A DNA stretch of 64,000 nt from Planctomycetota bacterium (GTDB taxonomy: Bacteria > Planctomycetota > PLA2 > JAEUHO01): assembly GCA_965223505.1 (NCBI GenBank), contig CBDCWP010000021.1:320001-384000 (forward strand), written 5' to 3'. Shown one piece after another: positions 12,756 through 61,044 of the stretch. The position numbers and the translations under genes were made by a program. The notes under the pieces are model-generated. The model made no database searches, had not been told where the DNA came from, and saw nothing but the letters and a program-made list of their open reading frames with translations. Position 1 is the first letter of the stretch, and every line of letters begins with the position of its first letter.

Positions 12756-12816
12756 CTTCGCTCCGACCGCCTTGCAGCTAGGGCGACAACGGTGTCGCCG
12801 CTACGGGTCCCCTGAT

Positions 12817-41600: not shown

Positions 41601-43052
41601 GGATTCGAGGCGCTCGAGCGCCGCCCGCGCTTCGGTGTCGTCGACGCCTTCCGATCGGGCGACATCCACGGCCCGCTGCGCCGACGCGACGGCGCCGGCC
41701 CAGTCGCCGATCACCTCGTGCTTGCCGGCTTCGCGCAGCGCTTCGGCGACCAACGGCGCCGCCCGCGCTTCGCGCGCATCGCGTGCGCCCTTCCACCACA
41801 GGTACCCGCCGCCCATCGCGATGATCGAGATCGCGGCAACGGCGCTGAGCGTGAGCACGTTCTTGCGTTTCCTGCGCTCCTTCGCGATGCGATTCTCGGC
41901 CTCGAGCGCGTCGAGCTCCGACTTCAGCGCCTCGCTCTCGACCGCGGCGAAGTGTGCCGCCATGCGTTCTTCGACGATGCCGGCGTGGCGCGGACGATCG
42001 GGAGGCAGCGGCTGGAGGCAGTCCCGACACAGCTTCTTCAGCGGCTCCGGGGCGTCGGCGGCGTCGAGCCGTGCGTACGCGTCGTCGAGGCGGCACTGGG
42101 TCGCCGCGACGAGCTGGTCGCGGACCTCGCCGGTGTAGGGCGCTTCGCCGGTCAGGATCTCGCACAGGATCGCTCCGAGCGAGAACACGTCGGCGCGTTC
42201 GTCGAGGTCGTCCACGCGACCGAGCGCCTGCTCGGGCGGCATGTACGCGGGCGTCCCCATGACGCTTCCCGCCATCGAGTCCGATCTACCCGAGCTACGA
42301 AGTGTGGCGATGATCGTGCCGTCGGCCTGGCGCGCGACCTCGTCGCGTCCGATCACCTTGCCGAAGCCCCAGTCGACGACGAGCACCTCGCCGAACGAGC
42401 CGATCATGATGTTCGCCGGCTTCAGGTCTCGGTGGATGACGCGGCGCGAGTGCGTGTAGGCGATGGTGAGGGCGACGGCCTCGAAGACGCTCAGGAGGTC
42501 GATGCCCTTCGGGTTGCTCTGCAGCAGGTCGGCGAGGGTGCGCCCCTTGATCAGCTTCATCGAGAAGCTCGGCCGTCCGTCGGACTGGAGCCCGAGTCCG
42601 TACACCGGGACGATGCCGGGGTGTTGCAGCTGCCCGCCGACCTGCGCCTCTTCGATGAAGCGCGCGACCACGTCCTCGCGCTCGGCGAACTCGGGGCGGA
42701 GCACCTTCAGCGCGATGTCGCGGTTCAGGTCCCGGTCGCGCCCGCGGTAGACGATCCCGATCCCTCCGCGCGCGATCTCGCCGACGATGTGGAACCGGCT
42801 GTCGCTGGCCGCCTCCTCCTCCTTGCGCTGGAAGACGAGCCGCTCTTCGCCGTCCTGCGGCTCCCGGAGCAGGATGCTGCCGTCGAGATTGTGGAGCCTC
42901 GAAATCGCGACGAGGATGCTCTCCCCGGTCTCCCTGGGGAACGGCTCGAAGGCCTCTCCCTCGCGCGGCTCGCCCGAAGCGTCTTCGCGGGGCTGGTTCG
43001 TCGGCTCATTCGAGCTCACTTCGGCGGGATCGTCGGGCCGGTCGTCTTTCAT
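38664..43052 (-). CDS. Large membrane Ser/Thr protein kinase with many TPR repeats
   Basis: [37 protein letters not shown] helix, long TPR array, C-terminal YNAAC motif. Confidence 0.93.
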
Positions 43053-44937: not shown

Positions 44938-45027
44938 GGAGGGATGGCCGAGTGGTCGAAGGCACCGGTTTTGAAAACCGGCGTACCCTCACAGGTACCG
45001 CGAGTTCGAATCTCGCTCCCTCCGCCA
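44938..45027 (+). tRNA. tRNA-Ser(TGA), 90 nt, CCA encoded; island integration site
   Basis: GGAGGGA/TCCCTCC acceptor stem, CCGGT-TTTGAAA-ACCGG anticodon arm, long variable arm, GTTCGAAT T loop, GCCA end. Confidence 0.95.
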
Positions 45028-45131
45028 TTACATGGCCCTTAGAGGCCGATTCCGCGCGTTTCAGCTCCGTCGGCGGGGGCCGTCACTCGTCCACCCGGAC
45101 GCGCTCAGGGGTGCCGAAGCGCGCCTAGATC

Positions 45132-45151
45132 GTTCCCCAGTAGTTCCCCAG
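45132..45151 (+). repeat. Tandem GTTCCCCAG x2, candidate integrase arm-type sites (left end)
   Basis: GTTCCCCAG-TA-GTTCCCCAG; related inverted pair CTGGGAAAC/CTGGCGAAG at 58562-58582. Confidence 0.5.
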
Positions 45152-45305
45152 CGTGGCCGTCGTGCGTCACGAGTCCACGCCACCGGCTATGCTCGGGACC
45201 GAAGAGATGGCCTCAGGTTCTGCGCCGGTGTCTACGGCGGGGCGGGTCGAGGTGGTGAGCGATGGGGAAGAGGCGGAGCCAGATGCTCGGAGGGCAGGTG
45301 CGGCG

Positions 45306-46448
45306 GTGAGTCTGATCGACCAGATGCTCGCAAGCCCGCCAGGAGACATGGGTGGGGCGATCGCGGCGAACCGCCTCGCCTACCAGCGGCTTTGGGCGAT
45401 CTGCCGGATCTTGGAGCTGCACGGTGGCGGCCAGGACTATCGGATCGTGTTCGAGTGGCACGATGACGTCTTGGAGCTTGATTCGGCGAGCGCTCCGAGT
45501 GCCGTGACTCTGTATCAGGTGAAGACCCGCAAGGGGGCAAAGGCCTACACCGCGGGAGAACTGACAAGGAGGCACGGCAAAAAGAACCCGCGCTCATGGC
45601 TCGGAAAGCTAGTCGCCCATGGATTTGGCGCATTCAAGGCCTCGGTGGCGAGCATGGTGTTCGTGAGCGCGCCCGGGTGCAAGTTGAAGATGGGCGACGG
45701 GACTGCCTGTTTGGATGCGCCCAGGGCGTGCCTCATCCACGCTGATGAAGATACGCTCGAGGAGATCAAGACCAAGCTCGCGACCGAACTCGGCGTCAAG
45801 GAGGCTCAGCTTCCGCTTGATCGTGTCTTCCTTTGGAACGCTGGCCTGGACTTGGACGACACCGAGAGCCATACGCTTGGCCGGCTCGCGCGGTTTCTCG
45901 AGGAGCACTTCCCAAAGGTCGTAGATGCGAACGCTCTGTTGAAGACGCTGCTGCGCGAGGCGAACCGCCGATCGTGCAAGGAGGCCCACCCAGCTTCGGA
46001 AGCCGAGCTATACGCCGAGCGGTCCATCGCCCGGGCGGACCTCGCCAAGATGCTCACCGACGCGGGGGCCTATGTCGGTCTGGACGCCTTGCGCGACAGC
46101 ATCGAGCGGCGCCTAAACGCAGACGGTGTGCCCCCCGGCGTCGTGGTCCGCACACTGCTAGAGTGCGAGACGTACTGGCTGGATCGCCGCGCAGACTCCT
46201 CGGCCCTCCTAGCCGATTCAAGGCAGCAGGTCATGGAGCGGGTCCGAGAACTCCTCTCCGCTGCCCCCGAGTCAGCCTCGACGCTATCCGATGTCGTGGG
46301 CCGGTGCCTTGCGCCGAAGACGCAGGAACTCGGCGCGCTTGAGGGTGCCAAGAGTACGACCTACATGAAGGCCATGGTCATGGTGGAGTTCTATGAGCAA
46401 TCACACGTTCCGCCGGCTGATTCGCAGCCTGAGGATCCGCGCGCATGA
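45306..46448 (+). CDS. lmuA: Lamassu effector LmuA-like protein (Cap4/DUF4297 dsDNA endonuclease)
   Basis: GG..A...YQ..WA, FEWHDDV, YQVKT PD-(D/E)xK-type motif; overlaps the SMC-like ATPase gene; start inferred at GTG 45306. Confidence 0.82.
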   Translation: MSLIDQMLASPPGDMGGAIAANRLAYQRLWAICRILELHGGGQDYRIVFEWHDDVLELDSASAPSAVTLYQVKTRKGAKAYTAGELTRRHGKKNPRSWLGKLVAHGFGAFKASVASMVFVSAPGCKLKMGDGTACLDAPRACLIHADEDTLEEIKTKLATELGVKEAQLPLDRVFLWNAGLDLDDTESHTLGRLARFLEEHFPKVVDANALLKTLLREANRRSCKEAHPASEAELYAERSIARADLAKMLTDAGAYVGLDALRDSIERRLNADGVPPGVVVRTLLECETYWLDRRADSSALLADSRQQVMERVRELLSAAPESASTLSDVVGRCLAPKTQELGALEGAKSTTYMKAMVMVEFYEQSHVPPADSQPEDPRA

Positions 46449-48154
46449 GCGACTTGCGATTCGAAAGCATCAGGCTGGTGTCGTTCCTAGAGCGAAAGTC
46501 GAGGCTGATCGAGTTCCACCCAGAGATGACCGCACTGGTCGGAGCGAACGGAAGAGGTAAGTCCGCGATCCTGAAGTCCTTGTACGCCACGTTGGGCGCC
46601 AACCCCTGGAAGGTCACCAGGGGGTGGCGAGAGGCGGGCGTACATAGCTGCCTAACCTTCACGCTTGGGGGCAGGCGGTTTCGAATGCTGCACGATGGGT
46701 CAACCCACACCCTGTTCGGTGAAGGCGACGAGGTGGTCGGGATGTTCGCAACGCATGGCGCGCTGGCTGAGTTCTACGTGCAGTTCCTTCGCTTCCCGAT
46801 GCGCCTTCAAACGCGGGAAGGGCCTGGGCGACAGGCGTACCCCGCGATGCTCTTCTTGCCCTACTACTTCGACCAAGACAAGAGTTGGGGGGACCCGTGG
46901 CTGTCGTTCCAGGGGCTGACGGCGTTCCGCGATCACCGTAGACATGCCGCACAATTTCATGCGGGCATTCGTCCGAAGGAGTATTACGACGCACTGGCGA
47001 GTCGAGACGCCGCGCAGTCGCGCGTCGGAGAGCACGTGTATCAGCGCAAGGTACTCAAGCGCACCTTGACTGAGGTGCGGAGAAGGATGGGGGTCGCAGA
47101 CTTCGACTTGGACCTAGATCGCTTCAAGGAGGAGTTGGCCGAACTCTTGGAACTATGTGAGGAGCTGCGGGCAAGGGAGCAGGAGTACAAGGCCAAACTC
47201 CTTAAACTCTACGACAAGAGGTCCGTACTCGAGACCCAGCTCGCCGTGGGTGGGAACGCGCTGGCGGAACTGCAGGCCGACACAACTTTCGCTGATCGGT
47301 TGAGTGAGGCAGAGGTGATGTGTCCCACCTGCGGATCCACGCATCTCAATGACTTTGGAGCACGCTTCCAGATCGCCGCGGATGAAGGGCGCTGCCGCGC
47401 CCTGGTGGCGGATGTGCAGACGCAGCTCTTGAAGCTGCGGGTCAAGATCGAGCGGTTGGAGCAGGAGACGTCTGCCGCGGGCCATGAGCTGTCGCAGGTG
47501 CAGCAGTTGCTTGAGCGAAAGCAGGCGGATGTCAAGCTGCATGACTTGCTTCGGAGCGAAGGGCGAGCCGAGTTGAGGGACGTCCTAGCCTCAGAGGTGT
47601 CTGAGCTTGACAAGCAGGCGGGCGAAGCAACGGCGCAGGTGGAGAGCGCTGTCGAGACGATCAGGGCACTCACTGACAAAGAGCGAGCCAGGAAGACTCG
47701 TGCAGAGTGGCAAGGCTTGTTCCATCGCAATCTCAGCGAGCTTGGTGTTGACGAGGTGGTGCCCGATTCGACGCGGCAAATGTGGTCGCCGATTCAGGCG
47801 AGTGGGTCCCGGACTCCTCGCGCGCTCTTGGCGTTCTACTTCAGTTTCTTGGAACTCGCGCGCCGGCACTCCACGAGCACCTTCTGTCCCATCGTCATCG
47901 ACTCGCCCAAGCAGCAGGACCCCGATTCGGCCAACTGGCAGCGGATGCTCGCGTTCATACGTGACCGCAGACCCTCGGGAGCGCAGATTGTCCTCTCGGC
48001 AACGGACCTCGCGGGCGTGGACATGGGGGGCTCCGTGATCGAGCTGTTGGAGCATCGCCAAGTGCTGTCAACGGATGAGTATGCGGACGGTGCCGCGGAA
48101 GTCTCCGCCCTTCTCGACATCGCGAGCCGATTCGCGGAGGAGCAGGGAGCCTAG
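46445..48154 (+). CDS. lmuB: Lamassu LmuB-like SMC/Rad50 ATPase
   Basis: Walker A GANGRGKS, YFDQD, coiled coils with central CPTC zinc hook, SGS signature, Walker B IVIDSPKQQD. Confidence 0.85.
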   Translation: MSDLRFESIRLVSFLERKSRLIEFHPEMTALVGANGRGKSAILKSLYATLGANPWKVTRGWREAGVHSCLTFTLGGRRFRMLHDGSTHTLFGEGDEVVGMFATHGALAEFYVQFLRFPMRLQTREGPGRQAYPAMLFLPYYFDQDKSWGDPWLSFQGLTAFRDHRRHAAQFHAGIRPKEYYDALASRDAAQSRVGEHVYQRKVLKRTLTEVRRRMGVADFDLDLDRFKEELAELLELCEELRAREQEYKAKLLKLYDKRSVLETQLAVGGNALAELQADTTFADRLSEAEVMCPTCGSTHLNDFGARFQIAADEGRCRALVADVQTQLLKLRVKIERLEQETSAAGHELSQVQQLLERKQADVKLHDLLRSEGRAELRDVLASEVSELDKQAGEATAQVESAVETIRALTDKERARKTRAEWQGLFHRNLSELGVDEVVPDSTRQMWSPIQASGSRTPRALLAFYFSFLELARRHSTSTFCPIVIDSPKQQDPDSANWQRMLAFIRDRRPSGAQIVLSATDLAGVDMGGSVIELLEHRQVLSTDEYADGAAEVSALLDIASRFAEEQGA

Positions 48155-48353
48155 TTCGGTCGAGTCCCGCGGTCGTCCTCCCCCACGTGGCAGCGCCCTC
48201 CCGGCCTCTTCACGCGTGGCGCCGTCGCGCCTAGTGGCTTGACAGCCGCCGACTCTGCGGACACAAGTGGTGCCCGGCTCGTACCTTAGGCGAGCCGCAG
48301 CCGACGAAGTGCCTAGCGCGGGCCGCCTGATGGCGCGCGAGCAAGGGGGCGGG

Positions 48354-49838
48354 TTGATCACGGGAGAACTACGGTCCAAGGTTGACCGCATCTGGGACAC
48401 GATGTGGTCCGGCGGGATCTCGAATCCGCTCTCGGTCATCGAGCAGTTGACCTACCTGCTCTTCATCAAGCGGCTGGACGAGCTCCAGACCTTGAAGGAG
48501 CGGAAGGCAGCGCGCACGAAGAAGCCGATCGAGGATCCGATCTTCGGGCCGGACCAAGACGAATTCCGCTGGTCCCGGTTCAAAGAGACGGCGCCCGAGG
48601 TCATGTTCGCGACTGTCAAGGACGAGGTCTTCCCATTCATCAAGACCCTCGGGCAGAAGGACGACGACGACGGAGAGGGGGCGTCGACCTACACGCACCA
48701 CATGAAGGACGCGATCTTCATGTTCCCGAAGGCCAGCCTCCTGGCGAACGTGGTCGACCAGCTCGACGGCATCGAGATGGCCGACATCGACACGAAGGGC
48801 GACCTCTACGAGTACATGCTCGGGAAGATCGCGAGCGCCGGGCAAAACGGTCAGTTCCGAACGCCGCGCCACATCATCAAGCTCATGGTCGATATGACGA
48901 CGCCGACGCCGAAGGATGTGATCTGCGATCCCGCGTGTGGAACCGCGGGATTCCTCATTGCCGCTTCCGAATACATGAAGGAACACCACGGCGACGCGAT
49001 CTACAAGGACGCCGTATCCCGTCACCGCTTCAACGAACGGACCTTCCACGGCTACGACTTCGACAGCACAATGCTCCGAATCGGGAGCATGAATATGCTG
49101 CTCCACGGGGTCGAGAACCCGGACATTCGATATCGGGATTCGCTTGCGCAGGCCGACGATGACGACGCCGAGAGGTTCTCGTTGGTGCTGGCCAATCCGC
49201 CGTTCGCCGGAAGTCTGGACTACGAGTCGACCGCGAAGGATCTGCTCCAGGTCGTCAAGACGAAGAAGACCGAGCTCCTGTTCTTGGCGCTATTCCTCCG
49301 TCTGCTGCAGATCGGGGGACGCGCCGCCGTCATCGTCCCCGACGGCGTTCTGTTCGGTTCGTCCAAGGCACACAAGGCGCTGCGGAAGATGCTCGTCGAG
49401 GATCAGAAACTCGACGCCGTGATCTCGATGCCCTCGGGGGTGTTTAAGCCGTACGCCGGTGTCTCGACGGCGATCCTCGTCTTCACGAAAACGAACTCGG
49501 GCGGCACCGACAACGTCTGGTTCTACGACATGCGGGCGGACGGCTTCTCACTCGACGACAAGCGCACGCCGCAACCGGGGAAGACTGACCTCCCCGACAT
49601 CCTCGAGCGCTGGAAGAGCCGGGACGCCGAGGGCGATCGAGCGCGGGCCGACCCGAGCTTCCTGGTCCCGAAGGCTGAGATCGCGGAGAACGACTACGAC
49701 CTCTCGATCAATCGCTACAAGGAGGTGGTGTACGAGCCGGTCGAGTACGACCCACCGAGTGTGATCCTGGATCGGCTGGCGCAGCTCGAGGACGAGATCG
49801 CGAAAAAGCGTGAGAAACTCGAGGGCCTGCTCGGATGA
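48354..49838 (+). CDS. hsdM: Type I R-M methyltransferase subunit
   Basis: ITGELRSKVDRIW, GQFRTPRHII, DPACGTAGF, NPPF; TTG start at 48354. Confidence 0.95.
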   Translation: MITGELRSKVDRIWDTMWSGGISNPLSVIEQLTYLLFIKRLDELQTLKERKAARTKKPIEDPIFGPDQDEFRWSRFKETAPEVMFATVKDEVFPFIKTLGQKDDDDGEGASTYTHHMKDAIFMFPKASLLANVVDQLDGIEMADIDTKGDLYEYMLGKIASAGQNGQFRTPRHIIKLMVDMTTPTPKDVICDPACGTAGFLIAASEYMKEHHGDAIYKDAVSRHRFNERTFHGYDFDSTMLRIGSMNMLLHGVENPDIRYRDSLAQADDDDAERFSLVLANPPFAGSLDYESTAKDLLQVVKTKKTELLFLALFLRLLQIGGRAAVIVPDGVLFGSSKAHKALRKMLVEDQKLDAVISMPSGVFKPYAGVSTAILVFTKTNSGGTDNVWFYDMRADGFSLDDKRTPQPGKTDLPDILERWKSRDAEGDRARADPSFLVPKAEIAENDYDLSINRYKEVVYEPVEYDPPSVILDRLAQLEDEIAKKREKLEGLLG

Positions 49839-51007
49839 GGCCTAGTGAGCGCCCCATCGGCGACCTGGTCGACAAGTGCGCGACCTGGAACCCGAAGCAC
49901 AACGGCTGCGACACCTTTGACTACATCGACCTCAGTTCGGTCGACAAGGACGTCAAGGCGATCACCGCAGTCGAACGCCAGGCGTGTTCAGAAGCGCCGA
50001 GTAGGGCGCGGCAATTGGTCGAGTCTGGGGATGTCTTGGTGGCGACCGTTCGACCCAATCTCAACGGGGTGGCTCTCGTGGGTCCTCCTCACGGCGGAAT
50101 GACGGCTTCCACGGGATACTGTGTCCTTCGCCCCAAGGGGTGGCTGCTCGACTCCCACTACCTGTTTCATTGGGTGAGAACCAGCGCATTCGTCGAGCGC
50201 ATGGTGAAGATGGCGACGGGAGCCAACTACCCCGCTGTGTCCGATGCGAAGGTCAGGCGTTCGGGCATTCCCTACGTTCCCATAGCCGAGCAGAAGCGGA
50301 TCGCCGCGATCCTGGATGCGGCGGACGCCTTGCGGGCCAAGCGCCGCGAGTCCCTCGCCGAGCTCGACGCGCTCGTTCAATCCGTCTTCCTCGACATGTT
50401 TGGGGACCCCGTCACCAATCCGATGGGGTGGGAGATGGGCTCCCTCAAAGATGTCACGGAGAAGATCACCGATGGCACACACAAGACACCTGCGTACACC
50501 GAGTCTGGGATCGAGTTCCTCTCCGCGAAGGATGTAAGGGACGGTGAAATCCGGTGGAATACCGGGAAGTTCATCAGCCCTGAAGAGCATGCACACCTCA
50601 TCAGGAGGTGCAATCCAGAGCCGGGTGACCTGCTCTTGGCCAAGAGCGGATCACTGGGGTCTGTGGCGGTCATCGACAGGGACCATGAGTTCAGCTTGTT
50701 CGAGAGTCTGTGCCTCATCAAGCGTGATTCAAAGAGGGTCGACGCCTCCTTTCTCGCATGCATGCTTGGAAACCCGACGATGCAGGTGCATCTGCTGCGA
50801 AAGAACAAGGGTGTCGCGGTTAGACACCTACATCTCGTAGATATCCGTGGACTTCAGATTCTGGTGCCACCGATGCGTCTGCAGCGCGAATTCGCTGCCA
50901 TCGTGGCAGCCGTTCAGGAGCAGAGACTCAGGCAGCGGGAGCATCTAGCCGAACTCGACACCCTCTTTGGGTCCCTGCAGGTCCGCGCCTTCGACGGAGA
51001 GTTGTAG
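49835..51007 (+). CDS. hsdS: Type I R-M specificity subunit
   Basis: Two TRDs; PIAEQKRIAAILD, FLDMFGDPVTNPMGW, PPMRLQREFA..LFGSLQVRAFDGEL. Confidence 0.93.
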   Translation: MRPSERPIGDLVDKCATWNPKHNGCDTFDYIDLSSVDKDVKAITAVERQACSEAPSRARQLVESGDVLVATVRPNLNGVALVGPPHGGMTASTGYCVLRPKGWLLDSHYLFHWVRTSAFVERMVKMATGANYPAVSDAKVRRSGIPYVPIAEQKRIAAILDAADALRAKRRESLAELDALVQSVFLDMFGDPVTNPMGWEMGSLKDVTEKITDGTHKTPAYTESGIEFLSAKDVRDGEIRWNTGKFISPEEHAHLIRRCNPEPGDLLLAKSGSLGSVAVIDRDHEFSLFESLCLIKRDSKRVDASFLACMLGNPTMQVHLLRKNKGVAVRHLHLVDIRGLQILVPPMRLQREFAAIVAAVQEQRLRQREHLAELDTLFGSLQVRAFDGEL

Positions 51008-51012
51008 GCCCC

Positions 51013-54000
51013 ATGGACGTGTCGGCCAACTTCGACTTCCTGAAGCAGGAGTTCTTCCATGCTGCGGAAAGCGCGAGCTACGCCGAACACCAGGTCTACC
51101 GCGATCCACGCGCTGCCTGTTTCCACGCCCGACACGCCCTCGAACGAGTCGTCTCCCGCGTCTTCAAGGTCGACAAGACTCTCGATCCGCCGAAGACGAC
51201 AAACCTCGACGGCTACCTGCACGACGCGTCGTTCCGTAAGCTGGTCCCCGAAGCGGTCTGGCAGAAGGCCGAGTACGTCCGCAAGGCGGGAAACCGCGCC
51301 GTCCACGGCAAGATGATGCCGTCACCGGAGGCGGCCCTGGCAGTGGTCAAGGAGCTGTTCCACGTCTTCTACTGGGCCGGGCGCACCTACCTACGAAGGG
51401 GTGCCGAGGAGCTCAAGGGGCGAAACTACGACGAGGCCCTGGTCCCGCGATCGACGCCCACATCAGACCCGGCTAGCGTGGCGGAGCTGGAGGTGCTGAA
51501 GGCCAAACTCGACACAGCGGACGCCGAACGTCAGGAGCAGGAGGCGGAGCTCAAGAAGCTGCGGGAGCGCATCGCCGCGATCAAGGCCGAGAATGAGGCC
51601 GTCCCTGACGCCCACGACTGGAACGAGGCCGAGACCCGAAAGCGCCTGATTGACCTGGAGCTCCGTCGAGCAGGCTGGACCCTCGAGGGGGAGGACGACC
51701 GCGAGTACCTCGTCACCGGCATGCCCAACATTGACGAGAAGGGCTACGCCGACTACGTCCTCTGGGGCAATGACGGCAAGCCCCTCGGCGTCGTTGAGGC
51801 GAAGAAGACGATGGTCGACCCCAAGGTCGGCCGGCAGCAGGCGAAGCTCTACGCCGACTGCCTGCAAAAGATGCACGGCCAGCGCCCGATCATCTTCTAC
51901 ACGAACGGGTACACGACCCACGTCTGGGACGATGCCTTCTATCCGCAGCGAGAGGTCGCCGGGTTCTACAAGAAGGACGAGCTCGAGACGCTGGTCCGGC
52001 GGCGCGAGCAGCGCAAGCCCCTAGACGTCGCCCAGGTGAAGGACGCGATCGTCGAGCGGTACTACCAAAAGCGGGCGATCGGGAGCATCTCGCAGCAGTT
52101 CGTCGAGGCTCGTCGAACGGCGCTCCTGGTCATGGCAACCGGGACCGGAAAGACGCGAACGGCAATCGCACTCGTGGACCTGCTCCAGCGCGCAGGATGG
52201 GTGAAACGGGCCCTGTTCCTGGCCGATCGTGTCTCGCTGGTGAACCAGGCCGTGGGGGCGTTCAAGGCGCACCTTCCCGAGTCGAGTCCCGTGAACCTCG
52301 TCACTGAGAAGGACAAGACGGGGCGGGTGTATGTCTGCACCTATCCCACGACGATGGGGCTGATCGACGAGACGAAGGGGGACGAAGCCCGGTTCGGCGT
52401 CGGTCACTTCGACCTTGTGATTATCGACGAGGCCCACCGCTCGGTGTATCAGAAGTACAGCGCGATCTTCCGGTACTTCGACTCCCTACTGGTCGGCCTC
52501 ACGGCTACCCCGCGCGAGGACATCGACCGCAACACATACGAGCTCTTCGACTTGGTCTCCGGCATGCCGACGGACGCCTACGAGCTGGAGACTGCCGTCC
52601 AGGACGGCTACCTCGTTCCGCCTCGGGTCGAACAGGTTGACCTTAAGTTCCCGCGGGAAGGCATCGAGTACGACTCCCTCTCGGACGAGGAGAAGGAGCA
52701 GTGGGAGAGCCTGGACTGGGGCGACGACGCGACTCCGGGCGGGTTCCCACCCGGCGTAAGCGCATCGTCGGTCAACAACTGGCTGTTCAACAAGGACACG
52801 GTCGACAAGGTCCTCCAGCACGTGATGGAGCGCGGGCACAAGGTCGAAGGCGGGGACCGCCTCGCCAAGACGATCATCTTCGCGAGGAACCACGAGCACG
52901 CCGCCTTCATCGAGGAGCGATTCGATCACCACTACCCCAAGCACGCCGGCCACTTCGCCCGCGTCATCGACAATCAGGCGAAGTACCCGCAGAGCCTGAT
53001 CGACGACTTCTCGCAGAAGGACAAGGCGCCACACATCGCGATCTCGGTAGACATGCTGGACACGGGCATCGACGTGCCGGAGGTCGCGAACCTAGTCTTC
53101 TTCAAGCCCGTGTACTCGAAGATCAAGTTCTGGCAGATGATCGGGCGCGGGACGCGCCTCTGTCCCGACCTGTTCGGGCCGGGGAAGGACAAACAGGACT
53201 TCCGGGTCTTCGACTTCTGCTTCAACTTCGACTTCTTCCGTGAGAACCCAGACGGGATCGAAGGCGGAGCCACCGTTCCCCTCGCTACGCGCCTCTTCCG
53301 TGCGCGTGTCGAGATGCTCTCGAAGGTGCAGGCCGACGCCAAACTCAACCCCAGTGGCAAGCTCGGGACCTCGCTCACGACGCAGCTGCGTGACGAAGTC
53401 GCCGGCATGAACCGAGAGAACTTCATCGTTCGGATGCATCGGGAGGCCGTCGAGCGCTTCCGTGGGCCGGATGCCTGGGACAAGCTCACCGACGAGGACA
53501 GGGTGGCGCTCGATCGGCTGGCCGAACTGCCGAGCGAGATCGAGACGGATGAGATCGAATCGCGCCACTTCGACCTGACGGCGCTCCGGATGCAGCTCGC
53601 GTTCGCCGAGGGGGACCACGGCACGTTCGAACGGCACCGGCAGAGGGTTATCGAGATCGCCCAGCTCCTCGAGGACAAGTCCGCGATCCCGGCCGTCAAG
53701 GCCCAGCTTCCGTACCTTGCGTCGATCCAAACAGACGGCTTCTGGGACGGGCTGAACCTCGACCTGCTCGAAGACCTCCGCCTTCGCCTTCGTGGTCTGA
53801 TGCCGTTCCTCGACAGAACGAAGCGGAAGATCGTCTACACGGACCTCCAAGACGAGGTGAAGTGCGTCCGAGAAGGGGAGATCTTCCAGGTCCCGAAGAT
53901 GACGGGCGTCCAGTACGCGAAGAAGGTCGCTGAGTACCTCGAAGGCCACCGGAACCACATCGTGATCCACCGCCTGCGGAACAACGAGCCGCTCACGGAA

Positions 54001-54381
54001 TCGGACCTCGCGGGCTTGGAGACTGCCCTCGTCGAGATCGGCGAGGAGCAGGGCGAGGAACTCTTGGCCGGGCTCTTGGCGCGGAGTGAGGCCCCGTCGC
54101 TCGCCTACTTCATCCGGGAACTGGTGGGGCTGGACCGGGCGGCTTCACAGGCTGCGTTCTCCGAGTTCCTCTCCGACCGAAGTCTGACGCCCAAGCAGAT
54201 CCGGTTCGTGGAGATGGTCATCGACCAGTTGACGTCCCGGGGCGTAATGGGCGCGGGCGCACTCTACGAGCCTCCGTTCACGAGCATCCACGACGGCGGG
54301 CCGGAGGACTTGTTTGCCGGCAAGCAGAACGTGATCGACGGGATCTTCGAGCGGCTCGACGCCATCGCTTCACAGCTGTGA
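51013..54381 (+). CDS. hsdR: Type I R-M restriction subunit (EcoAI/EcoEI-like, DUF4145-like N-terminus)
   Basis: ADYVL..VEAK nuclease motif, MATGTGKT, DEAHRS, GLTATP, DTGIDVP, QMIGRGTR. Confidence 0.95.
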   Translation: MDVSANFDFLKQEFFHAAESASYAEHQVYRDPRAACFHARHALERVVSRVFKVDKTLDPPKTTNLDGYLHDASFRKLVPEAVWQKAEYVRKAGNRAVHGKMMPSPEAALAVVKELFHVFYWAGRTYLRRGAEELKGRNYDEALVPRSTPTSDPASVAELEVLKAKLDTADAERQEQEAELKKLRERIAAIKAENEAVPDAHDWNEAETRKRLIDLELRRAGWTLEGEDDREYLVTGMPNIDEKGYADYVLWGNDGKPLGVVEAKKTMVDPKVGRQQAKLYADCLQKMHGQRPIIFYTNGYTTHVWDDAFYPQREVAGFYKKDELETLVRRREQRKPLDVAQVKDAIVERYYQKRAIGSISQQFVEARRTALLVMATGTGKTRTAIALVDLLQRAGWVKRALFLADRVSLVNQAVGAFKAHLPESSPVNLVTEKDKTGRVYVCTYPTTMGLIDETKGDEARFGVGHFDLVIIDEAHRSVYQKYSAIFRYFDSLLVGLTATPREDIDRNTYELFDLVSGMPTDAYELETAVQDGYLVPPRVEQVDLKFPREGIEYDSLSDEEKEQWESLDWGDDATPGGFPPGVSASSVNNWLFNKDTVDKVLQHVMERGHKVEGGDRLAKTIIFARNHEHAAFIEERFDHHYPKHAGHFARVIDNQAKYPQSLIDDFSQKDKAPHIAISVDMLDTGIDVPEVANLVFFKPVYSKIKFWQMIGRGTRLCPDLFGPGKDKQDFRVFDFCFNFDFFRENPDGIEGGATVPLATRLFRARVEMLSKVQADAKLNPSGKLGTSLTTQLRDEVAGMNRENFIVRMHREAVERFRGPDAWDKLTDEDRVALDRLAELPSEIETDEIESRHFDLTALRMQLAFAEGDHGTFERHRQRVIEIAQLLEDKSAIPAVKAQLPYLASIQTDGFWDGLNLDLLEDLRLRLRGLMPFLDRTKRKIVYTDLQDEVKCVREGEIFQVPKMTGVQYAKKVAEYLEGHRNHIVIHRLRNNEPLTESDLAGLETALVEIGEEQGEELLAGLLARSEAPSLAYFIRELVGLDRAASQAAFSEFLSDRSLTPKQIRFVEMVIDQLTSRGVMGAGALYEPPFTSIHDGGPEDLFAGKQNVIDGIFERLDAIASQL

Positions 54382-54436
54382 TCGGGGGCTGGGTAGGGTG
54401 GCGACCCGAGGTAACTCCGCTGCATCCGGCCTTCTT

Positions 54437-54721
54437 CTACGAATCCCTTAGCGTCACCGGCGTGGTGTCGCGACAGAGAAGATCCATGTGAAGCCCGGAT
54501 ACGATTTCGTGTGCCAGGCGGAGCGCGTCCTCAGCACTCGGCTGTCGAGGAACGGTGGGTAGGTCTTCAGGCTCATCGACCATGGGGCCGGAGCGCTTGC
54601 CGAATCTGTGAATCGAAACCCCCCACGCGGACTGCACTGGGGACGTGACGAGGAGGTACCTGAACCTCGGCTCCCGAGGTTCCTCACGGCTATAGAAACA
54701 GACGACCTGATGAGTGTGCAC
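54437..54721 (-). CDS. Small hypothetical protein (94 aa)
   Basis: GTG start with GGAG RBS; lies between the two hsdR tail copies. Confidence 0.45.
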   Translation of the reverse strand: MHTHQVVCFYSREEPREPRFRYLLVTSPVQSAWGVSIHRFGKRSGPMVDEPEDLPTVPRQPSAEDALRLAHEIVSGLHMDLLCRDTTPVTLRDS

Positions 54722-55027
54722 GTCTACTCCGGCCTCCCGTCACGGCGTTGACGAACGGATCATCGCAAACGAGCAGCATCAGATGCCCACCGCGGAAGGC
54801 CTCGGGCTTGTCCAGCAGGCTTCGAGCGACGAGCTTCTCCGGGGCGAAGTCTGTCTCAAGGGCCTGCAGGCGATCGAAGATCCCCTCGATGACCTGTTCC
54901 TTGCCGCCGAACAGCTCGTCCGGGCCGCCAGCGTGCAGGCTCGTGAACGGTGCCTCGTAGAGCGCCGAGGCTTCCATGATCCCCCTCGCGGTGAGCTGGT
55001 CGATCACCATCTCCACGAACCGGATCT
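54690..55027 (-). pseudogene. Inverted second copy of the hsdR 3' end (alternative C-terminal domain, no start of its own)
   Basis: IRFVEMVIDQLTARGIMEASALYEAPFTSLHAGGPDELFGGKEQVIEGIFDRL vs the HsdR tail IRFVEMVIDQLTSRGVMGAGALYEPPFTSIHDGGPEDLFAGKQNVIDGIFERL. Confidence 0.85.
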
Positions 55028-55352
55028 CGCCGAGGAGTGGCAGCCCCGCGGGGGGATGGAGCGGCTCCTCATTGACAAGCTGGCCCAGGCAAGCACCGAG
55101 GAGATGCGCTGGTTGGAGCAGGCGGTTTCCCGGCGGGCCGTGCAGTACTCGGAGTCGGGCCGCAAGCACCGTGAGACCGGCCGCCGCAGCACCCCCCGCG
55201 TGGACTTCGCCGCCGCGACGGACCAGGCGATGGCGATGGCCGATCGCTGGAACCGGATCTTCTGTCGCACCCTTCGGGCGCTGCGGGACCTGCGCCGGTT
55301 CTCCGTGACGGTCAACATCCAGGGGCCGGGTCAGGTCAACGTGGGGCGATGA
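55028..55352 (+). pseudogene. 5'-truncated hypothetical gene of mobile-element type
   Basis: Protein-like reading EEWQPRGGMERLLIDKLAQ...ADRWNRIFCRTLRALRDLRR..VNIQGPGQVNVG starts abruptly at the hsdR-fragment junction. Confidence 0.5.
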
Positions 55353-55376
55353 CGTGGCCAGTACCTTTGGTTTCAA

Positions 55377-55540
55377 GGCCCATCCTCAAATAGTGAGGGC
55401 GGTGATTTAGGCAGCTAGGCTTTCTCGCCCGTAATTTTAGGATGAGGCCAAAAAACTAAACCCCGGATGTTCCAAGGCTAGGAAGCTAGCATTATCCGCA
55501 AATAAGTATAGGATATTCGCCGAATCCTAAAATAAGGAGG
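55377..55540 (+). promoter_or_regulatory. AT-rich regulatory region with repeated ATCCTxAAATA-like boxes upstream of fic-int
   Basis: ATCCTCAAATA 55382, inverted ATCCTAAAA 55435-55443, ATCCGCAAATAAG 55494, ATCCTAAAATAAG 55524; AGGAGG RBS. Confidence 0.55.
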
Positions 55541-55544
55541 GCAG

Positions 55545-56765
55545 ATGCGCAGCGAGGACTTCGGCTCCCGGAGCCCGGGCCAGCTCGTCCCCACAGAGGG
55601 CGGCGTTGACGCCTACGTGCCGAATCCCCTTCCGCCGCACGAGGGGGCATGGTCCAGCGTCGCCACCATGAGGGCGCTGGCCAAGGCCGAGAACGCCCTG
55701 GGACAGCTCGTGGGGACGGCCCGGCACGACCTACTGAACCCGCATCTCGTCGCGGCCCCGCTGATCCGGCGTGAGGCGATCATCTCGAGTCGCATCGAAG
55801 GCACCTACACGACCCCCAGGCAGTTGGCGCTGATCGAAGCCGAGCCCGAGAAGGAAGGCGGCAAGGGGCGGCGCATCGCCGCCGAGGACGAGGCGCGAGA
55901 GGTACTCAACTACGTTCGAGCAGTCGAGTACGGCTTCACGCGGCTGGATACGCTCCCCATGTCCAAGCGCCTCATGCGGGAGTTGCACGAGATCCTGATG
56001 AAGGGGGTGCGCGGTGGGCGCGAGCGGCCTGGCCAGTTCCGCGACCGACAGAATTACATCGCCAAGGAAGGCGACACGATTCAGAAGGCCCGTTTCGTGC
56101 CTCCCCCCGTGGCGGAGATGGAGCAGGGGCTGGACGACCTGGAAAGGTACATGCATCGGCCGCAGACGGACGAGTCGCTGCCGTTGCTGATCGACCTCGC
56201 GCTCGTGCACTACCAGTTCGAGACCCTTCACCCCTTCCGGGACGGTAACGGTCGCATCGGCCGCCTGATGGTCCCTCTCATCCTCAGTCAACACGGGAGG
56301 CTCGCCACGCCCCTCCTGTTCGTCAGTGGCTACTTGGAGCAGCACAAGCGGCGCTACATGGACCTGCTGCTCAAGGTGAGCATGGAGGGGGCGTGGCTTG
56401 AGTGGATCGAGTTCTTCCTAGATGCCGTAAGGGCCTCGGCGGTCGACGGTGCGAATCGTGCCAAACGGCTGCTGGCCTTGCGCCAGGAGTACGTGAACAA
56501 GGTCCAGTCTGCGAGGTCGTCCGCGCTACTGGTCAAGCTCATCGACGAGCTGTTTCACCGTCCCTCCATCACGTTCGGAGAGGCTGCCGAGTTGCTCGGC
56601 GTGACGCCTGCGGCCGCGAACGCGAACGTGCGGAAGCTGCAAGAGGCCGGGGTGCTCACGGAGATCACCGGCCAAGCCAGGAACATGATCTTCGCCGCGC
56701 AGGGCATCTTCGAGCTTGTGCATGACTCGGGGGATGACGGTACGGCCGAGAGCAGTCAGGAGTAG
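55545..56765 (+). CDS. Fic family protein (class II, N-terminal inhibitory motif, C-terminal HTH)
   Basis: HPFRDGNGRIGR Fic motif; SSRIEG inhibitory motif; HYQFETLHPF. Confidence 0.93.
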   Translation: MRSEDFGSRSPGQLVPTEGGVDAYVPNPLPPHEGAWSSVATMRALAKAENALGQLVGTARHDLLNPHLVAAPLIRREAIISSRIEGTYTTPRQLALIEAEPEKEGGKGRRIAAEDEAREVLNYVRAVEYGFTRLDTLPMSKRLMRELHEILMKGVRGGRERPGQFRDRQNYIAKEGDTIQKARFVPPPVAEMEQGLDDLERYMHRPQTDESLPLLIDLALVHYQFETLHPFRDGNGRIGRLMVPLILSQHGRLATPLLFVSGYLEQHKRRYMDLLLKVSMEGAWLEWIEFFLDAVRASAVDGANRAKRLLALRQEYVNKVQSARSSALLVKLIDELFHRPSITFGEAAELLGVTPAAANANVRKLQEAGVLTEITGQARNMIFAAQGIFELVHDSGDDGTAESSQE

Positions 56766-56768
56766 GCC

Positions 56769-57980
56769 ATGAAGCGTCGCCCGTTCGGTTCCATCATCCA
56801 GCGCCCGCCTAGGCCTGGCTACTACGTGACCTTCGTGTGGGGCGGTCGCCGCATCAAGCGGTCGGCGGGTCCGACCAAGGCCGCCGCCAGGAAGAAGCTC
56901 GCCGCAGCCGAGGCGCTGCTCAAGGGCGGCGTGGACCTCAACGAGGTGCTGGCCGAGGTGTTCGGTGACTTCCACGGCACGCGACTCACGTTCCGCGAAG
57001 CCGCGCCTCTTTACTTGGAGTACGCGCAGGGTCGCAAGAAGGAGTCCACGTTGCGCGGCGACGTGCCGCGCCTGCGCGTCCTCTGTCGTTCCCAGTGGTC
57101 AGGCAAGTACCTCGCGCAGATCGAACCCCGCGACTTCCTCCCGTGGATCGACGAGCGGCAGAAGTCGCGGGAGGTCGTCAAGGAGAAGCGCGTCCGTGGT
57201 GACGACGGGAAGATGCGCACCGAGAAGGTCAAGAAGGTGGTGCCGGGCGCGTCGGGCGCGACCGTCAACCGGGATCTGACCCTCGCCTCCGCCGTGTTCC
57301 AGTGGGCGATCCGCGCCGGGTATGTAGACGAGAACCCCGTGCGCAAGGTTGAGCGGTTCTCCGAGAAGGGGCGCAAGCGCGAGACGTACCTCGACGCCAA
57401 GGAGTGCCATGCCCTCATCGACGAGTGCTCGCCCGTGCTGCGGCCCGTCGTCCTGGCGGCGCTGCACACCGGGATGCGACGCGGTGAGATCCTGTCGCTC
57501 GCGTGGCGGACCGTGGACCTCAATCGCGACGAGATCCACATCGAGGCCGTCAACGAGAAGGCTGGCCGCGGTCGCGTCATCCCCCTGACCGACGACCTTC
57601 TGGCCACCCTCAAGGCGCTGAAGGCGTCCAGGCCCCGCCCTGCGCTGGACGGCAGCGACTCCGTATTCACGGACAAGGCGGGCAAGAAGATCACGCCCTC
57701 GTGCCTGCGGCGCATGTTCGAGCCCACCGTGGCTCGCTGTGAGGGGCTGCCGGTGCCGAAGCGAGAGGCCCTGCGCTTCCACGACCTCCGCCACACTGCG
57801 GCATCGCTGATGGTCAGCGGAGGCGTGCCGATCTTCGACGTGGCCAAGATCCTCGGGCACTCCACGGTGTCCGTGACCATGCGCTACGCGCATTTCGCGC
57901 CCGAAGCAGGGCGGGCGGCCATCGAGCGACTTTCATCTGCCCTTGCGCGGAGCGGTGGCCAAGAAGCCCGGACCGGATAG
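56769..57980 (+). CDS. Tyrosine recombinase/integrase
   Basis: TGMRRGE (R), EKAG (K), FHDLRHT (HxxR), ILGHS (H), TMRYAH (Y); N-terminal arm-binding-like domain. Confidence 0.95.
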   Translation: MKRRPFGSIIQRPPRPGYYVTFVWGGRRIKRSAGPTKAAARKKLAAAEALLKGGVDLNEVLAEVFGDFHGTRLTFREAAPLYLEYAQGRKKESTLRGDVPRLRVLCRSQWSGKYLAQIEPRDFLPWIDERQKSREVVKEKRVRGDDGKMRTEKVKKVVPGASGATVNRDLTLASAVFQWAIRAGYVDENPVRKVERFSEKGRKRETYLDAKECHALIDECSPVLRPVVLAALHTGMRRGEILSLAWRTVDLNRDEIHIEAVNEKAGRGRVIPLTDDLLATLKALKASRPRPALDGSDSVFTDKAGKKITPSCLRRMFEPTVARCEGLPVPKREALRFHDLRHTAASLMVSGGVPIFDVAKILGHSTVSVTMRYAHFAPEAGRAAIERLSSALARSGGQEARTG

Positions 57981-58044
57981 GCCGCGGGCCTCCCGGACTT
58001 GGAGGCGATGAGCGTGCTTGCAATGAGGCGTTCGGATAACTGCC

Positions 58045-58431
58045 CTATAGCTGCCAGAGTGCTGCTTCAAGAGCGGCGGCTACATCCGGGGCCGCGGCTC
58101 CGCGTTTGGCGAGCCGCCGTCGAAGGCCGCCTGCGACGAGGCCGCGGGGAATAGGCATCACGGCCGTCGCCAGGAAGAAGCCGACCCACAGGCCCACGGC
58201 CCAGCGCCAATCCCACGTAATCCAGATGTAGACGAGCAGACCCCAGCGGGCCAGTCTCGACAGCCATAGCAGGGGAAACCACGAGGGGAGTAGCAGTTGG
58301 GCAGCCGCCTCCTCTGGGACGCCGGTCGTTCGCACTAGTTCCAACGCCACGCGTTGGATGCAAAACCCAACAGCCTCAAATGCGGCCAGTCCGGCGTAGC
58401 AAGCCAGCAAGAGGTATTGATGCTCAGTCAT
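58045..58431 (-). CDS. Small membrane hypothetical protein
   Basis: GGGGAGGAG RBS; three hydrophobic Trp-rich segments. Confidence 0.65.
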   Translation of the reverse strand: MTEHQYLLLACYAGLAAFEAVGFCIQRVALELVRTTGVPEEAAAQLLLPSWFPLLWLSRLARWGLLVYIWITWDWRWAVGLWVGFFLATAVMPIPRGLVAGGLRRRLAKRGAAAPDVAAALEAALWQL

Positions 58432-58632
58432 GTACTGCTCGCTCCTCCCCGGAGAAGGCTACAGCGAGTCACTCGCTGGTGCTTCGGGGGGGGCACGTTG
58501 GACCGAGGCTTGAGTCCACCAGGGCGAACCAGAAGCGTCTGGTTGTGCGCGCTCGCACCCCCTGGGAAACCCCCTGGCGAAGTGCGATGTGTGTAACTCG
58601 CGCACCGTGAAGGCCTTGTGCAAGTCGGGCGT

Positions 58633-58694
58633 CGGTTTTGAAAACCGGCGTAGGGTCACACCTACCGGGGGTTCGAATCCCTCTCCCTCCGCCA
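58633..58694 (+). repeat. Displaced 3' portion of tRNA-Ser(TGA) (distal att site)
   Basis: Anticodon loop, variable arm, T arm and TCCCTCCGCCA are present; the 5' acceptor strand and D arm are absent. Confidence 0.9.
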
Positions 58695-58928
58695 CATTCA
58701 CGCGGCTGCCGCAATCCGGCGTTGGAGTCGCGCTCGGGGTTCTTCCCTACCCACCAGCGATGCCGCGAACGGGCGCGCTCGAGCGAACCGACCGTGTGCG
58801 CCCCCGGTGGCGAGTACTCGTCGCCACTTGCTCGAATGTTCTGGTTCGCACCACCGCTGACGACTTGTCCAAACTGCTGGGCCGGTACACCGGGTCGGAC
58901 GAGGCAGCTGCTCCTGCCGACTGCCGAG

Positions 58929-60152
58929 TCAATTCTCCTCGAAGCAATACCAGATGATTCTACGAGAGAAGGGGTCCCGCTGCACCAGGAGGAGGTTGGT
59001 GTGCTCCGGAGCGCGGCTACTCTCCTTGCTGTCACTGCAGTACCAGTCGAAGCGGGGGGAGGCAATACGCGCCCACCTCCTTTGGCCCTTTCGAACCCCC
59101 ATTCCGGCGACCCACAGCACCGGCTTGCTGCAGCGATCTACTTTCTTGCCCAGGTACGTATGTCGTTTCTGACGCTCGCCCTTCGGATTGCGGCTTCTGA
59201 TGCCGATTTCCGCGCTGTAGACGGCACTGCCGGCACCGGCCATTCGCAGCGCGACGAGCTGCGACCCCTTGTACGGAATGGTGTGATGGTGGAACGCACG
59301 GCGCGTAGCGAGAATCGTAGTGGCGTCCTTGGGGTCGGGGAACCCGATGTTGGCCAGCGGAATCACCACCACGTGGATGAGCCCGGATGTATTCGTCGCG
59401 GACACCACGAAGCCGCCGATTACTTCGCCACGTGTGCGTTCCCAGTCGAGGAACGCCTTCTCTGGATCCATGAGCGTCATTGCTCGTCCGTGCGTAGCTT
59501 GGATCGGCTTGCGTTTCGGCAGACCAGAGCGCGCCGCGACAAGGGCGCGCCGGAACGCTTGCGTCGGCATCGCGCGTTTCTTCCCGTCCTGCTCCATGAT
59601 TGCAACGACGACGTGGACCGCACCTCCTGGATGGAGAATGTCTGAATGGAGCAGGGGAAAGCGCAGGGGGACCCGGTCGCGGTTGGTCCACGAACCGAGA
59701 CTGCGCGCAACGTGCCCCTGCGAGAACTCGTAGTAGTCGGCCCACCTAGGATCTCTGGCATCGAACCCCGGACGCGTGAGCGTGCCACCAAGCGACACCC
59801 GGATGCGGCGTGGCAGGCGGGCGCTTTCCGTGGAGTGGTTCCCCTCGATGGGGCCGGTTGACTTCTTGTACAGGACGAAGACCTCGTCGCGGCCGGCGCC
59901 ACCGCCACCGTCGGTTCCCGTGGCCCACAGGCCGCCCGTCTCGGGCCTCTCGGGAGTCAGTCGGTGGCACTTGAGTTCGTGGATGTAGATGTCCACGATG
60001 GCCCTACCGGGCTTGTGCGGGGGTTTCACGGTGCCGGGCCGCCTCGGAACCACCTTGCCCGGCGGCGAGTCCTCATCGGCCCCGGTAGAAGATCCTTGGC
60101 CCAGGGTGGCCAGCAGTACGGTGATGATCAGGATCTTGGAACGGGAATCCAT
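58929..60152 (-). CDS. Secreted hypothetical protein with Cys-containing C-terminal domain
   Basis: Signal-like MDSRSKILIITVLLATLG; long uninterrupted ORF; no family recognised. Confidence 0.6.
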   Translation of the reverse strand: MDSRSKILIITVLLATLGQGSSTGADEDSPPGKVVPRRPGTVKPPHKPGRAIVDIYIHELKCHRLTPERPETGGLWATGTDGGGGAGRDEVFVLYKKSTGPIEGNHSTESARLPRRIRVSLGGTLTRPGFDARDPRWADYYEFSQGHVARSLGSWTNRDRVPLRFPLLHSDILHPGGAVHVVVAIMEQDGKKRAMPTQAFRRALVAARSGLPKRKPIQATHGRAMTLMDPEKAFLDWERTRGEVIGGFVVSATNTSGLIHVVVIPLANIGFPDPKDATTILATRRAFHHHTIPYKGSQLVALRMAGAGSAVYSAEIGIRSRNPKGERQKRHTYLGKKVDRCSKPVLWVAGMGVRKGQRRWARIASPRFDWYCSDSKESSRAPEHTNLLLVQRDPFSRRIIWYCFEEN

Positions 60153-60205
60153 GGCGGTTCCTCTGGACAAGCACGTGGATCTTGACACGGCGAGTGCTAC
60201 TGCAC

Positions 60206-60657
60206 TGATCTGCCCCCGATGAGTGTGCCACCTGGCAACTCACAAGGCTGCTCCCACGGCCAGGTCCGCGGGTAGCCAAGCTGCCGGCGCCGGCGGCTGG
60301 TAACCGGGCGAACTGTGCGGCCTGAAGTGGTTGTACTCCCAGCGCCAGCGTTCGATCAACACCTGGGCTTCCTTCAGGGTGTAGAAGATCTCGCCGTTGA
60401 GCAGCTCGTCGCGCAGCGAGCCGTTGAAGCGCTCGTTGAACCCGTTCTCCCACGGGCTCCCGGGCTCGATGAACAGGGTCCGGACGCCCAGCCCCGCCAG
60501 CCACTCGCGCACGGCCCGCGCGGTGAACTCGCTGCCATTGTCGCTCCTCAAGTGCCCCGGGATCCCGCGCTCGGCCATCAGCTCGCTGAGGCAGTCCAGC
60601 ACGTCATGCGAGCAAAGGCGCCTGGCGACGCGGATCGCCAGGCACTCGCGCGTGTAG
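60206..60657 (-). mobile_element. IS3-family remnant: 3' part of the transposase plus one terminal inverted repeat
   Basis: [47 protein letters not shown]; terminus TGATCTGCCCCCGATGAGTGTGCCAC at 60206-60231; 5' part missing. Confidence 0.85.
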
Positions 60658-60885: not shown

Positions 60886-61044
60886 CTGAAGCGGCGTGGG
60901 CGAGCCGGACGAGATCGTCTGCCTGTCGAGTTCTCGAACCAGATGGTCAGCAGGTCGTAGCGGGTAGCACACCTCACCACCACACCGACAGTCGACGGAC
61001 TCGATCCGGGCGGGCGATCGCCCCCAGGAGCGCCCCTGCTGGTG

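Follow-up and report, generated by a model that had tools for sequence, protein, structure and literature searches.

A planctomycete tRNA-Ser(TGA) gene that appears to join a host 5' part to an island-borne 3' half

Introduction

Islands that integrate at tRNA genes leave a recognizable arrangement: the tRNA gene is regenerated, its displaced 3' fragment lies downstream in the same orientation, and the two enclose the island and its tyrosine integrase gene. On this arrangement the Islander principle is built (Hudson, Lau and Williams 2015, PMC4383910). By the counts given in that article, islands centred on the anticodon form the larger class (2083 of 3919), and 125 tandem arrays are found at tRNA sites. 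A preprint that summarizes the sublocation rule (bioRxiv 10.1101/2020.11.02.365908) states that ICEAfe1 needs a 19-bp stretch of the anticodon loop. Here we describe a 13.7-kb island lying between the tRNA-Ser(TGA) gene and a fragment of that gene in an uncultured planctomycete. The window, meaning the whole stretch of 64,000 nucleotides (nt) that was analysed, is taken from contig CBDCWP010000021.1 of assembly GCA_965223505.1 (G000 in what follows, with G001 to G044 denoting genomes of the same family and L labels denoting loci).

A direct precedent for a host/element chimeric tRNA is mycobacteriophage Boilgate (mBio 2024, PMC10865867). Boilgate attP and the attB-4 site in tRNA-Lys(TTT) share a 43-bp core that extends over the tRNA 3' half and contains five single-nucleotide differences; when strands are exchanged left of the first of these, attL receives a functional tRNA with the phage version. 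Boilgate is a phage of an actinobacterium and was tested experimentally, whereas the window holds a phage-less defence island in a planctomycete metagenome-assembled genome (MAG) and is known from sequence alone; compared with the differences reported for Boilgate, those in the window are more numerous and almost all lie in compensated pairs. The tRNA-dependent lysogeny described in the same article (PMC10865867) resembles our case in that an essential single-copy tRNA gene is targeted through a short common core. As described there, however, no tRNA is restored at attL, and a complete tRNA gene of the same isotype is brought in by the phage. In the window, by contrast, we see a restored gene that folds, and ARAGORN found no other tRNA in the island.

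The island shares the layout of the tRNA islands covered by the Islander article (PMC4383910): the intact gene, the co-oriented fragment downstream and the tyrosine recombinase gene between them are all present. In most pairs of this kind the halves are identical or nearly so, whereas the two halves in the window differ at 9 of the 42 positions after the core. Unlike Islander tRNA islands, this one also bears repeat motifs of two element types on its arms. That a tRNA can be rebuilt from a variant half has been documented before (PMC4383910, PMC10865867), and the event is a textbook outcome that involves no new mechanism. The phrase "chimeric tRNA" was met in none of the 15 papers listed by a full-text literature search, which was itself not designed to prove the absence of further cases. 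What the locus may add is a composite island, a hot spot that extends across a family, and a weak hint that tRNA halves are moved between lineages. It would also be a clean, well-bounded case in which an essential tRNA with a single gene copy derives partly from the host and partly from a mobile element, in a phylum whose mobile elements are little described. Displaced fragments can diverge clearly from the resident gene, and islands of this sort would escape any search that requires near-identity.

The working tRNA-Ser(TGA) gene and its displaced fragment

The only tRNA gene that ARAGORN called in the window is a tRNA-Ser(tga) that spans 44938-45027 (+ strand) and folds into a cloverleaf at -39.9 kcal/mol. 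We refer to it as the working gene and read it as the left attachment site, attL. The last 62 nt of this gene have a co-oriented copy at 58633-58694 (+), the displaced fragment, read as attR. A repeat search of the window returned the two as a direct repeat (44961-45027 and 58628-58694; 67 nt, 84% identity, spacing 13,667 nt). By exact pattern match and by alignment of the copies, attL and attR have in common an identical 20-nt core at 44966-44985 (+), which occurs exactly twice in the 64 kb (again at 58633-58652); a pattern running from the T loop to CCA likewise has exactly two occurrences (0 expected for either, from 100 shuffles). Both the 20-bp core and the terminal match had been reported in a preliminary description of the sequence, with coordinates that proved exact. 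The core starts at the second base of the anticodon stem, a start that is identical in three related elements (L048, L051 and G014), and covers 4 nt of the 5' strand of this stem, the anticodon loop, the 3' strand and 4 further nt. As in anticodon-centred islands, the block of identity begins in the anticodon stem and extends 3'. The crossover must lie inside the 20-nt core.

Across the last 62 nt, gene and fragment have nine mismatches, every one of them 3' of the core and within the 42 positions that follow it. Eight of the nine sit in four base pairs that are paired in both copies. Two pairs of the variable stem are inverted (C-G in one copy, G-C in the other), T-stem pair 50-64 is C-G in the working gene and G.U in the fragment, and T-stem pair 52-62 is A-U in the working gene and G-C in the fragment; the ninth difference is a single base of the variable loop. 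The 3' half of the working gene, which would be the island-borne one (44986-45027, +), has the variable arm GTACC/GGTAC and the T stem GCGAG/CTCGC, followed by the acceptor strand and CCA, and the fragment has GTAGG/CCTAC and GGGGG/CCCTC after the core. The changes in the variable arm and T stem had been characterized beforehand as structure-preserving, and the four retained pairs bear this out.

Serine identity depends on variable-arm length, acceptor strand and discriminator base and is not known to depend on arm sequence. The two 3' halves have equal variable-arm lengths, the same acceptor strand and the same discriminator base. In G014, a natural gene that matches the fragment throughout its 3' part takes the same cloverleaf as the working gene at -39.6 kcal/mol. 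The assembly, which is 92% complete, contains 63 tRNA genes and just one tRNA-Ser(tga), so a chimeric tRNA-Ser(TGA) must function. T-stem pair 50-64 is among the pairs that tune EF-Tu binding. Given that role, and since the swap in G000 alters this pair, such swaps need not be neutral.

The GC content is 0.60-0.65 over about 45.0-60.5 kb against 0.68-0.72 on either side. Together with the defence genes described below, this lower GC marks the 13.7 kb as foreign in composition and cargo, at a size within the 2-200 kb range of Islander. The tyrosine integrase gene (A-type; 56769-57980, +; Pfam PF00589, E=1e-28, above the cut-off) is at the island end that adjoins the fragment, far from the working tRNA. 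Its nearest relatives all come from Planctomycetota MAGs (38-59% identity), with 19 planctomycete loci among the matches. At just two of these 19, tRNA-Ser(TGA) lies upstream of the integrase (L048, 59% identity; L051, 53%), and at both of them a co-oriented tRNA fragment follows just downstream of the integrase; other integrases of the clade adjoin tRNA-Arg, tRNA-SeC or tRNA-Thr. The same order of tRNA-Ser(TGA), cargo, integrase and fragment recurs in G014, where the integrase has 80% nucleotide identity over 641 nt and the fragment-side arm matches 58557-58697 at 79% identity over 142 nt. Judging from these layouts, attP in this integrase clade would read integrase, arm, core, tRNA 3' half. 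With this order, the working gene receives its 3' half from the element on integration, and the host half ends up beside the integrase.

We consider it likely that the working tRNA-Ser(TGA) is a host/island chimera that arose by integration, as the preliminary description had proposed. A tyrosine-integrase island would have recombined with the chromosome at the only tRNA-Ser(TGA) gene, within its anticodon stem-loop. The former 3' half of the gene would have been displaced by 13.7 kb and would persist as the fragment at 58633-58694, and the gene would have been rebuilt from the host 5' part and a 3' half from the left arm of the island. The island half would stem from a different tRNA-Ser(TGA) lineage, with four compensated pairs and one loop base changed on the same cloverleaf geometry. 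We infer the direction of the event from the standard topology, in which attL is B-O-P' and attR is P-O-B'.

Which half is the host's

The family set used for comparison comprises 29 genomes including G000. As G000 is the sole member of its genus there, the question of which half is the host's was put to other genera. Over all 62 nt, the fragment version has 100% identity with the gene of G014, and its identity is 98% with genes or fragments in G041, G004, G017, G044, G022, G015, G009, G043, G020 and G001. A fragment-type half is thus present at 98% identity or more in 11 of the 28 other family genomes, and 4 further genomes have it at 90-94%. Three genomes (G001, G017 and G022) have exactly the 5' half of G000 and carry a fragment-type 3' half one loop base apart.

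The half that resides in the working gene has a different distribution. Its 28-nt T arm plus acceptor strand is found exactly in just two of the 28 other genomes, G008 and G020. In G008 the resident-type T arm is present in the gene, with an integrase 142 nt downstream on the opposite strand, and in two fragments; G020 has it in a fragment to which a truncated integrase is joined. The whole resident half with a free variable loop had no match in the species representatives of GTDB, the exact half had none in metagenome contigs, and a relaxed pattern had none in viral contigs. The sole metagenome match to a relaxed pattern without the acceptor strand was an unrelated low-GC tRNA-Ser(GCT), which we rejected as a donor.

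The 125 nt that follow the working gene (45028-45152, +; the left or P' arm of the island) align with the stretch after tRNA-Ser(TGA) in G022, G044 and G004. A paired motif, GTTCCC[CG], is found at +105/+116 in G000 and in these three genomes, which in the window reads GTTCCCC at 45132 and 45143. Since this flank is homologous to flanks in other genomes, it is element DNA, common to islands in another genus. At the other end, the 13 nt immediately past the fragment (58695-58707, +; CATTCACGCGGCT) resemble a tRNA-Ser(TGA) trailer: the first 13-23 nt are like the gene trailer in G009 and in its congener G020 and like the sequence past the G043 fragment. No tRNA-Ser(TGA) fragment was detected in G009.

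These comparisons support a working gene at 44938-45027 composed of a host 5' part, the common core and an island-borne 3' half, and they show that the fragment is the family-typical half, with the resident half rare and linked to elements. The relatives carry the 58653-58694 version of the half and not the 44986-45027 version, the reverse of the result that the preliminary description had named as refuting its claim. The claims of the preliminary description that the working tRNA is a chimera and that the fragment is the original host half both find backing in the family-typical fragment, the rare resident half and the standard attL/attR layout, the second in the strict sense that the fragment is the half that the target had at the last integration. 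Its suggestion that the resident half traces the donor lineage held in part: the T arm and acceptor strand are shared with the G008 gene and the G020 fragment, and the half as a whole is unmatched in the collections searched. Its further idea, that the new half might alter susceptibility to other integrases or tRNA nucleases, is speculative.

Alternative histories of the two halves

Several observations count against reading the fragment as the host's own half and the resident half as the island's. Neither a donor nor an empty site, an excised circle or an island-free congener was found in the 29 family genomes and four public runs. The assembled contigs from these runs, all of one study, stop at the repeats, with ends at 44964/44983 and 58662/58674, and none bridges the site. 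When the tRNA-Ser(TGA) flanks of 14 family genomes were compared with G000 by tblastx, there was no downstream flank in common, so that no empty-site model could be built; the sole nearby matches were upstream flanks of two genus-g5 genomes, which map about 10 kb upstream in G000. The G014 island is bracketed by repeats that extend some 690 nt past the tRNA at 88% identity (L044:2890-3580 and 12510-13195), as if its element carried a host-like downstream flank captured by aberrant excision from a related host. Likewise, the intact gene of G020, on the element side, has a native-like trailer of 32 nt. Elements can therefore carry native-looking halves and flanks, and a family-typical look alone is no proof of host origin. 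The likeness of the right flank to native trailers spans just some 13-23 nt, and core DNA cannot be demonstrated in the 2.3 kb that follow the fragment on its right, with GC staying low to about 60.5 kb. In this stretch, an open reading frame (ORF) of 419 amino acids (58929-60188, -) with a signal-peptide-like start matched no protein family and lacked a homologue in 28 family genomes, and so does not help to decide whether the DNA is native. It is followed by a truncated remnant of an rve-type transposase (60240-60671, -) and then by a WD40 Ser/Thr kinase of a host paralogue family.

Contig joints from about 44963-44984 to 58660-58669 were also seen; they hold 12-35 extra letters and belong to serine tRNAs of other organisms, and they speak neither for nor against excision.

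The low GC to about 60.5 kb, the orphan gene and the transposase remnant would fit a history in which the fragment was delivered by a previous element of the same kind, part of a tandem array and since decayed, and the true original is lost; the working tRNA would still be a chimera. Tandem arrays at tRNA-Ser(TGA) are evident in G020 and probable in G008, and the variable-loop variant of the fragment, GTCACAC, is otherwise seen only in element-side genes of G014 and G020, with GTCAAAC in six other genomes. However, no integrase, Fic gene, arm motif or further fragment was found in 58695-64000 or in the next 20 kb, the right flank opens with a likeness to the G009 trailer, in a genome without a detected fragment, and the fragment is a single loop base away from the commonest native type. 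We regard this history as improbable.

A reversed assignment, in which the GCGAG half is native and the family-typical fragment arrived with the integrase module, so that the swap ran the other way or never touched the working gene, draws on G008. There, a 5' half exactly like that of G000 is combined with the GCGAG T arm in the gene and in two fragments, a combination that is possibly native in some lineage of the family. RpoB identity to G000 gives no sharp separation, at 82% for G008 and about 81-89% for carriers of the typical half (parts compared). Against this, the arm that immediately follows the resident half has homologues among the element arms of three other genomes, and site-specific integration places an element's half next to element DNA. 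No GCGAG-type fragment was seen at any candidate right end, and in the window, exactly as in G014, L048 and L051, a conserved integrase arm ends in the fragment. The reversed assignment appears very unlikely to us. Still a shade less credible is that the two halves were identical at integration and that the nine differences arose later in place. Displaced fragments are free to decay, yet nothing specific favours such divergence here: the fragment is undecayed, given its 100% identity to the functional G014 gene and 98% to ten others, and the change would take four double, compensated substitutions in the working gene while the core and 5' part stayed identical to relatives. In all seven other pairs of equal length, the halves differ at 0-1 positions after the core.

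Related elements and the tRNA-Ser(TGA) hot spot

Apart from the integrase relatives described above, the right-hand part of the island has close counterparts within the family. An element in G020 matches G000 at 91% nucleotide identity over 55088-56998, with 97% identity for the Fic protein and 89% for the integrase N-terminus. For the window Fic, identity is 97% with the copies that adjoin tRNA-Ser(TGA) pieces in G020 and G041 and 90% with the G012 copy. In G041 (L202:193-3047) its gene directly follows a tRNA-Ser(TGA) fragment and in G012 (L198:1130-2900) a tRNA-Ser(TGA) gene, each in a different genus from G000. A small module of Fic and integrase seems to form the mobile backbone. Taken across the family, tRNA-Ser(TGA) stands out as an integration hot spot in at least five genera.

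Two further loci were noted during these comparisons. On another contig of the same assembly (G000:C43:10939-12299), a tRNA-SeC gene is followed by an integrase with 52% identity to that of G008 next to tRNA-Ser(TGA), so that G000 probably has a second island there. In G020, the upstream flank and the tRNA 5' half (positions 1-39, at 100% identity) occur a second time, 1.2 kb upstream of the intact tRNA-Ser(TGA) gene (L041:11499-11569), in a copy that breaks off in the anticodon loop, which looks like the scar of an element that rebuilt the 5' half.

A possibly composite island

The paired arm motifs provide a further view of how the island may have been assembled. In G022, the GTTCCC[CG] pair is on both arms, at +105/+116 past the gene and at -78/-67 before the fragment, and the integrase beside the fragment-side arm is 35% identical to that of G000. 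A different pair, ACCCCCT twice, precedes the fragment at -76/-64 in G000 and at -75/-63 in G014, and in G020 is found on the left arm at +107/+119 past the gene. In the window, the right or P arm (58557-58632, +), which is homologous to the fragment-side arm of G014, has ACCCCCTGG at 58557 and 58569. A single element would be expected to bear the same motif on both arms; G000 alone mixes them, with GTTCCCC twice on the left and ACCCCCT twice on the right.

On balance, this mixture somewhat favours an island formed by fusion of two elements that target the same tRNA site. A left module would comprise the arm with GTTCCCC, the variant tRNA half and the Lamassu and type I restriction genes, its own integrase having been lost, and a right module would comprise SoFic, the integrase and the arm with ACCCCCTGG. 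The simplest history would be two insertions at one tRNA, after which the inner junction and one of the integrases were lost. The seam of the two modules likely falls near 55088, where the homology to the G020 element (91% nucleotide identity) begins, inside an ORF of uncertain status at 54690-55376 (-). The C-terminal part of this ORF is EcoEI_R_C-like; in G020, an ORF that precedes Fic matches the N-terminal part. The ORF is probably a fusion at the seam.

Two considerations tell against a fusion. With the integrases of G022, G008 and G041 as queries, no remnant of a second integrase was found in the island, the known gene alone being recovered, and the argument for two elements depends on two short paired motifs. 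Were the island composite, the variant tRNA half would have come with the Lamassu/restriction module and not with the resident integrase, and the arms would no longer match one integrase, so the island may excise poorly.

Turnover of tRNA halves in the family

We compared the two halves in other genomes and loci of this kind. Counted after the core, pairs without length change differ at no position in G044, G022, L048 and L051 and at one in G014, G019 and G043, against nine in G000. In G020 and G008 the halves are strongly different, with variable arms of unequal length, so that ungapped counts are not meaningful for them. Variant halves therefore recur at the tRNA-Ser(TGA) hot spot. The same left arm can moreover be joined to different halves, as is seen from G000 on the one hand and G022, G044 and G004 on the other.

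As a control, T stems were compared across the four serine isoacceptors in related genomes. Diversity, in differences per site, was 0.23-0.26 for TGA, 0.17-0.21 for CGA and 0.21-0.24 for GCT. The idea that TGA is exceptional in T-stem diversity was rejected, as it is similar to CGA and GCT; GGA alone stands apart. The T stem of tRNA-Ser(GGA), GCAGG/CCTGT, is invariant in 27 of 27 genomes, and each other serine isoacceptor has 4-5 types. Displaced fragments were seen for TGA, CGA and GCT, and none was seen for GGA.

These patterns offer a tentative hint, which we think rather unlikely to hold, that in this planctomycete family islands docking in the anticodon loop shuttle tRNA 3' halves between hosts, sometimes with flanking DNA as in G014. 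If so, much of the diversity in the T stem and variable arm of tRNA-Ser genes would come from island traffic and not from point mutation, which would matter for interpreting the evolution of tRNA genes; here it is a hint only.

Cargo and surroundings of the island

The cargo resembles that of defence islands with Lamassu, type I restriction-modification and SoFic systems, as judged by PADLOC models, with matches to LmuA/LmuB, MTase_I/Specificity_I/REase_I and SoFic at E-values of 3e-51 to 8e-191. Next to the left arm is a Lamassu pair of adjoining genes with a 4-nt overlap: an LmuA-like effector with a Cap4 nuclease (45153-46448, +; Pfam PF14130, E=8e-32; PADLOC LmuA, E=3e-51) and an LmuB-like SMC-type ATPase (46445-48154, +; PADLOC LmuB, E=1e-169, full length). 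A type I restriction-modification set follows, consisting of the methylase HsdM (48267-49838, +; Pfam N6_Mtase, E=4e-66; PADLOC MTase_I, E=8e-191), the specificity subunit HsdS (49835-51007, +) and the restriction subunit HsdR (51013-54381, +), the last two assigned by Pfam and PADLOC. Beyond the putative seam is the SoFic-type Fic protein with a C-terminal winged helix (55545-56765, +; PADLOC and Pfam), directly before the integrase. An ORF of 128 amino acids between the integrase and attR (58045-58431, -) had no Pfam, PADLOC or NCBIfam match and may not be a gene. As cargo this is nothing unusual, three anti-phage systems being stacked in one island.

Some features of the surroundings were also recorded. 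About 26 kb downstream of the fragment, outside the window (G000:C21:404780-404860; L047:780-860), a degenerate tRNA-Ser-like stretch has a D-arm, a family-typical variable arm with a GTCAAAC loop and a T arm; it has no acceptor strand on the 5' side, other sequence takes the place of its anticodon arm, and ARAGORN did not call it. Large Ser/Thr kinases with TPR or WD40 repeats are encoded on both flanks of the island (38664-43052, -, and 61045-63942, -), and a few kilobases further on they have paralogues (L046:735-3890 and 6697-10827) with nucleotide similarity of 68-77%.

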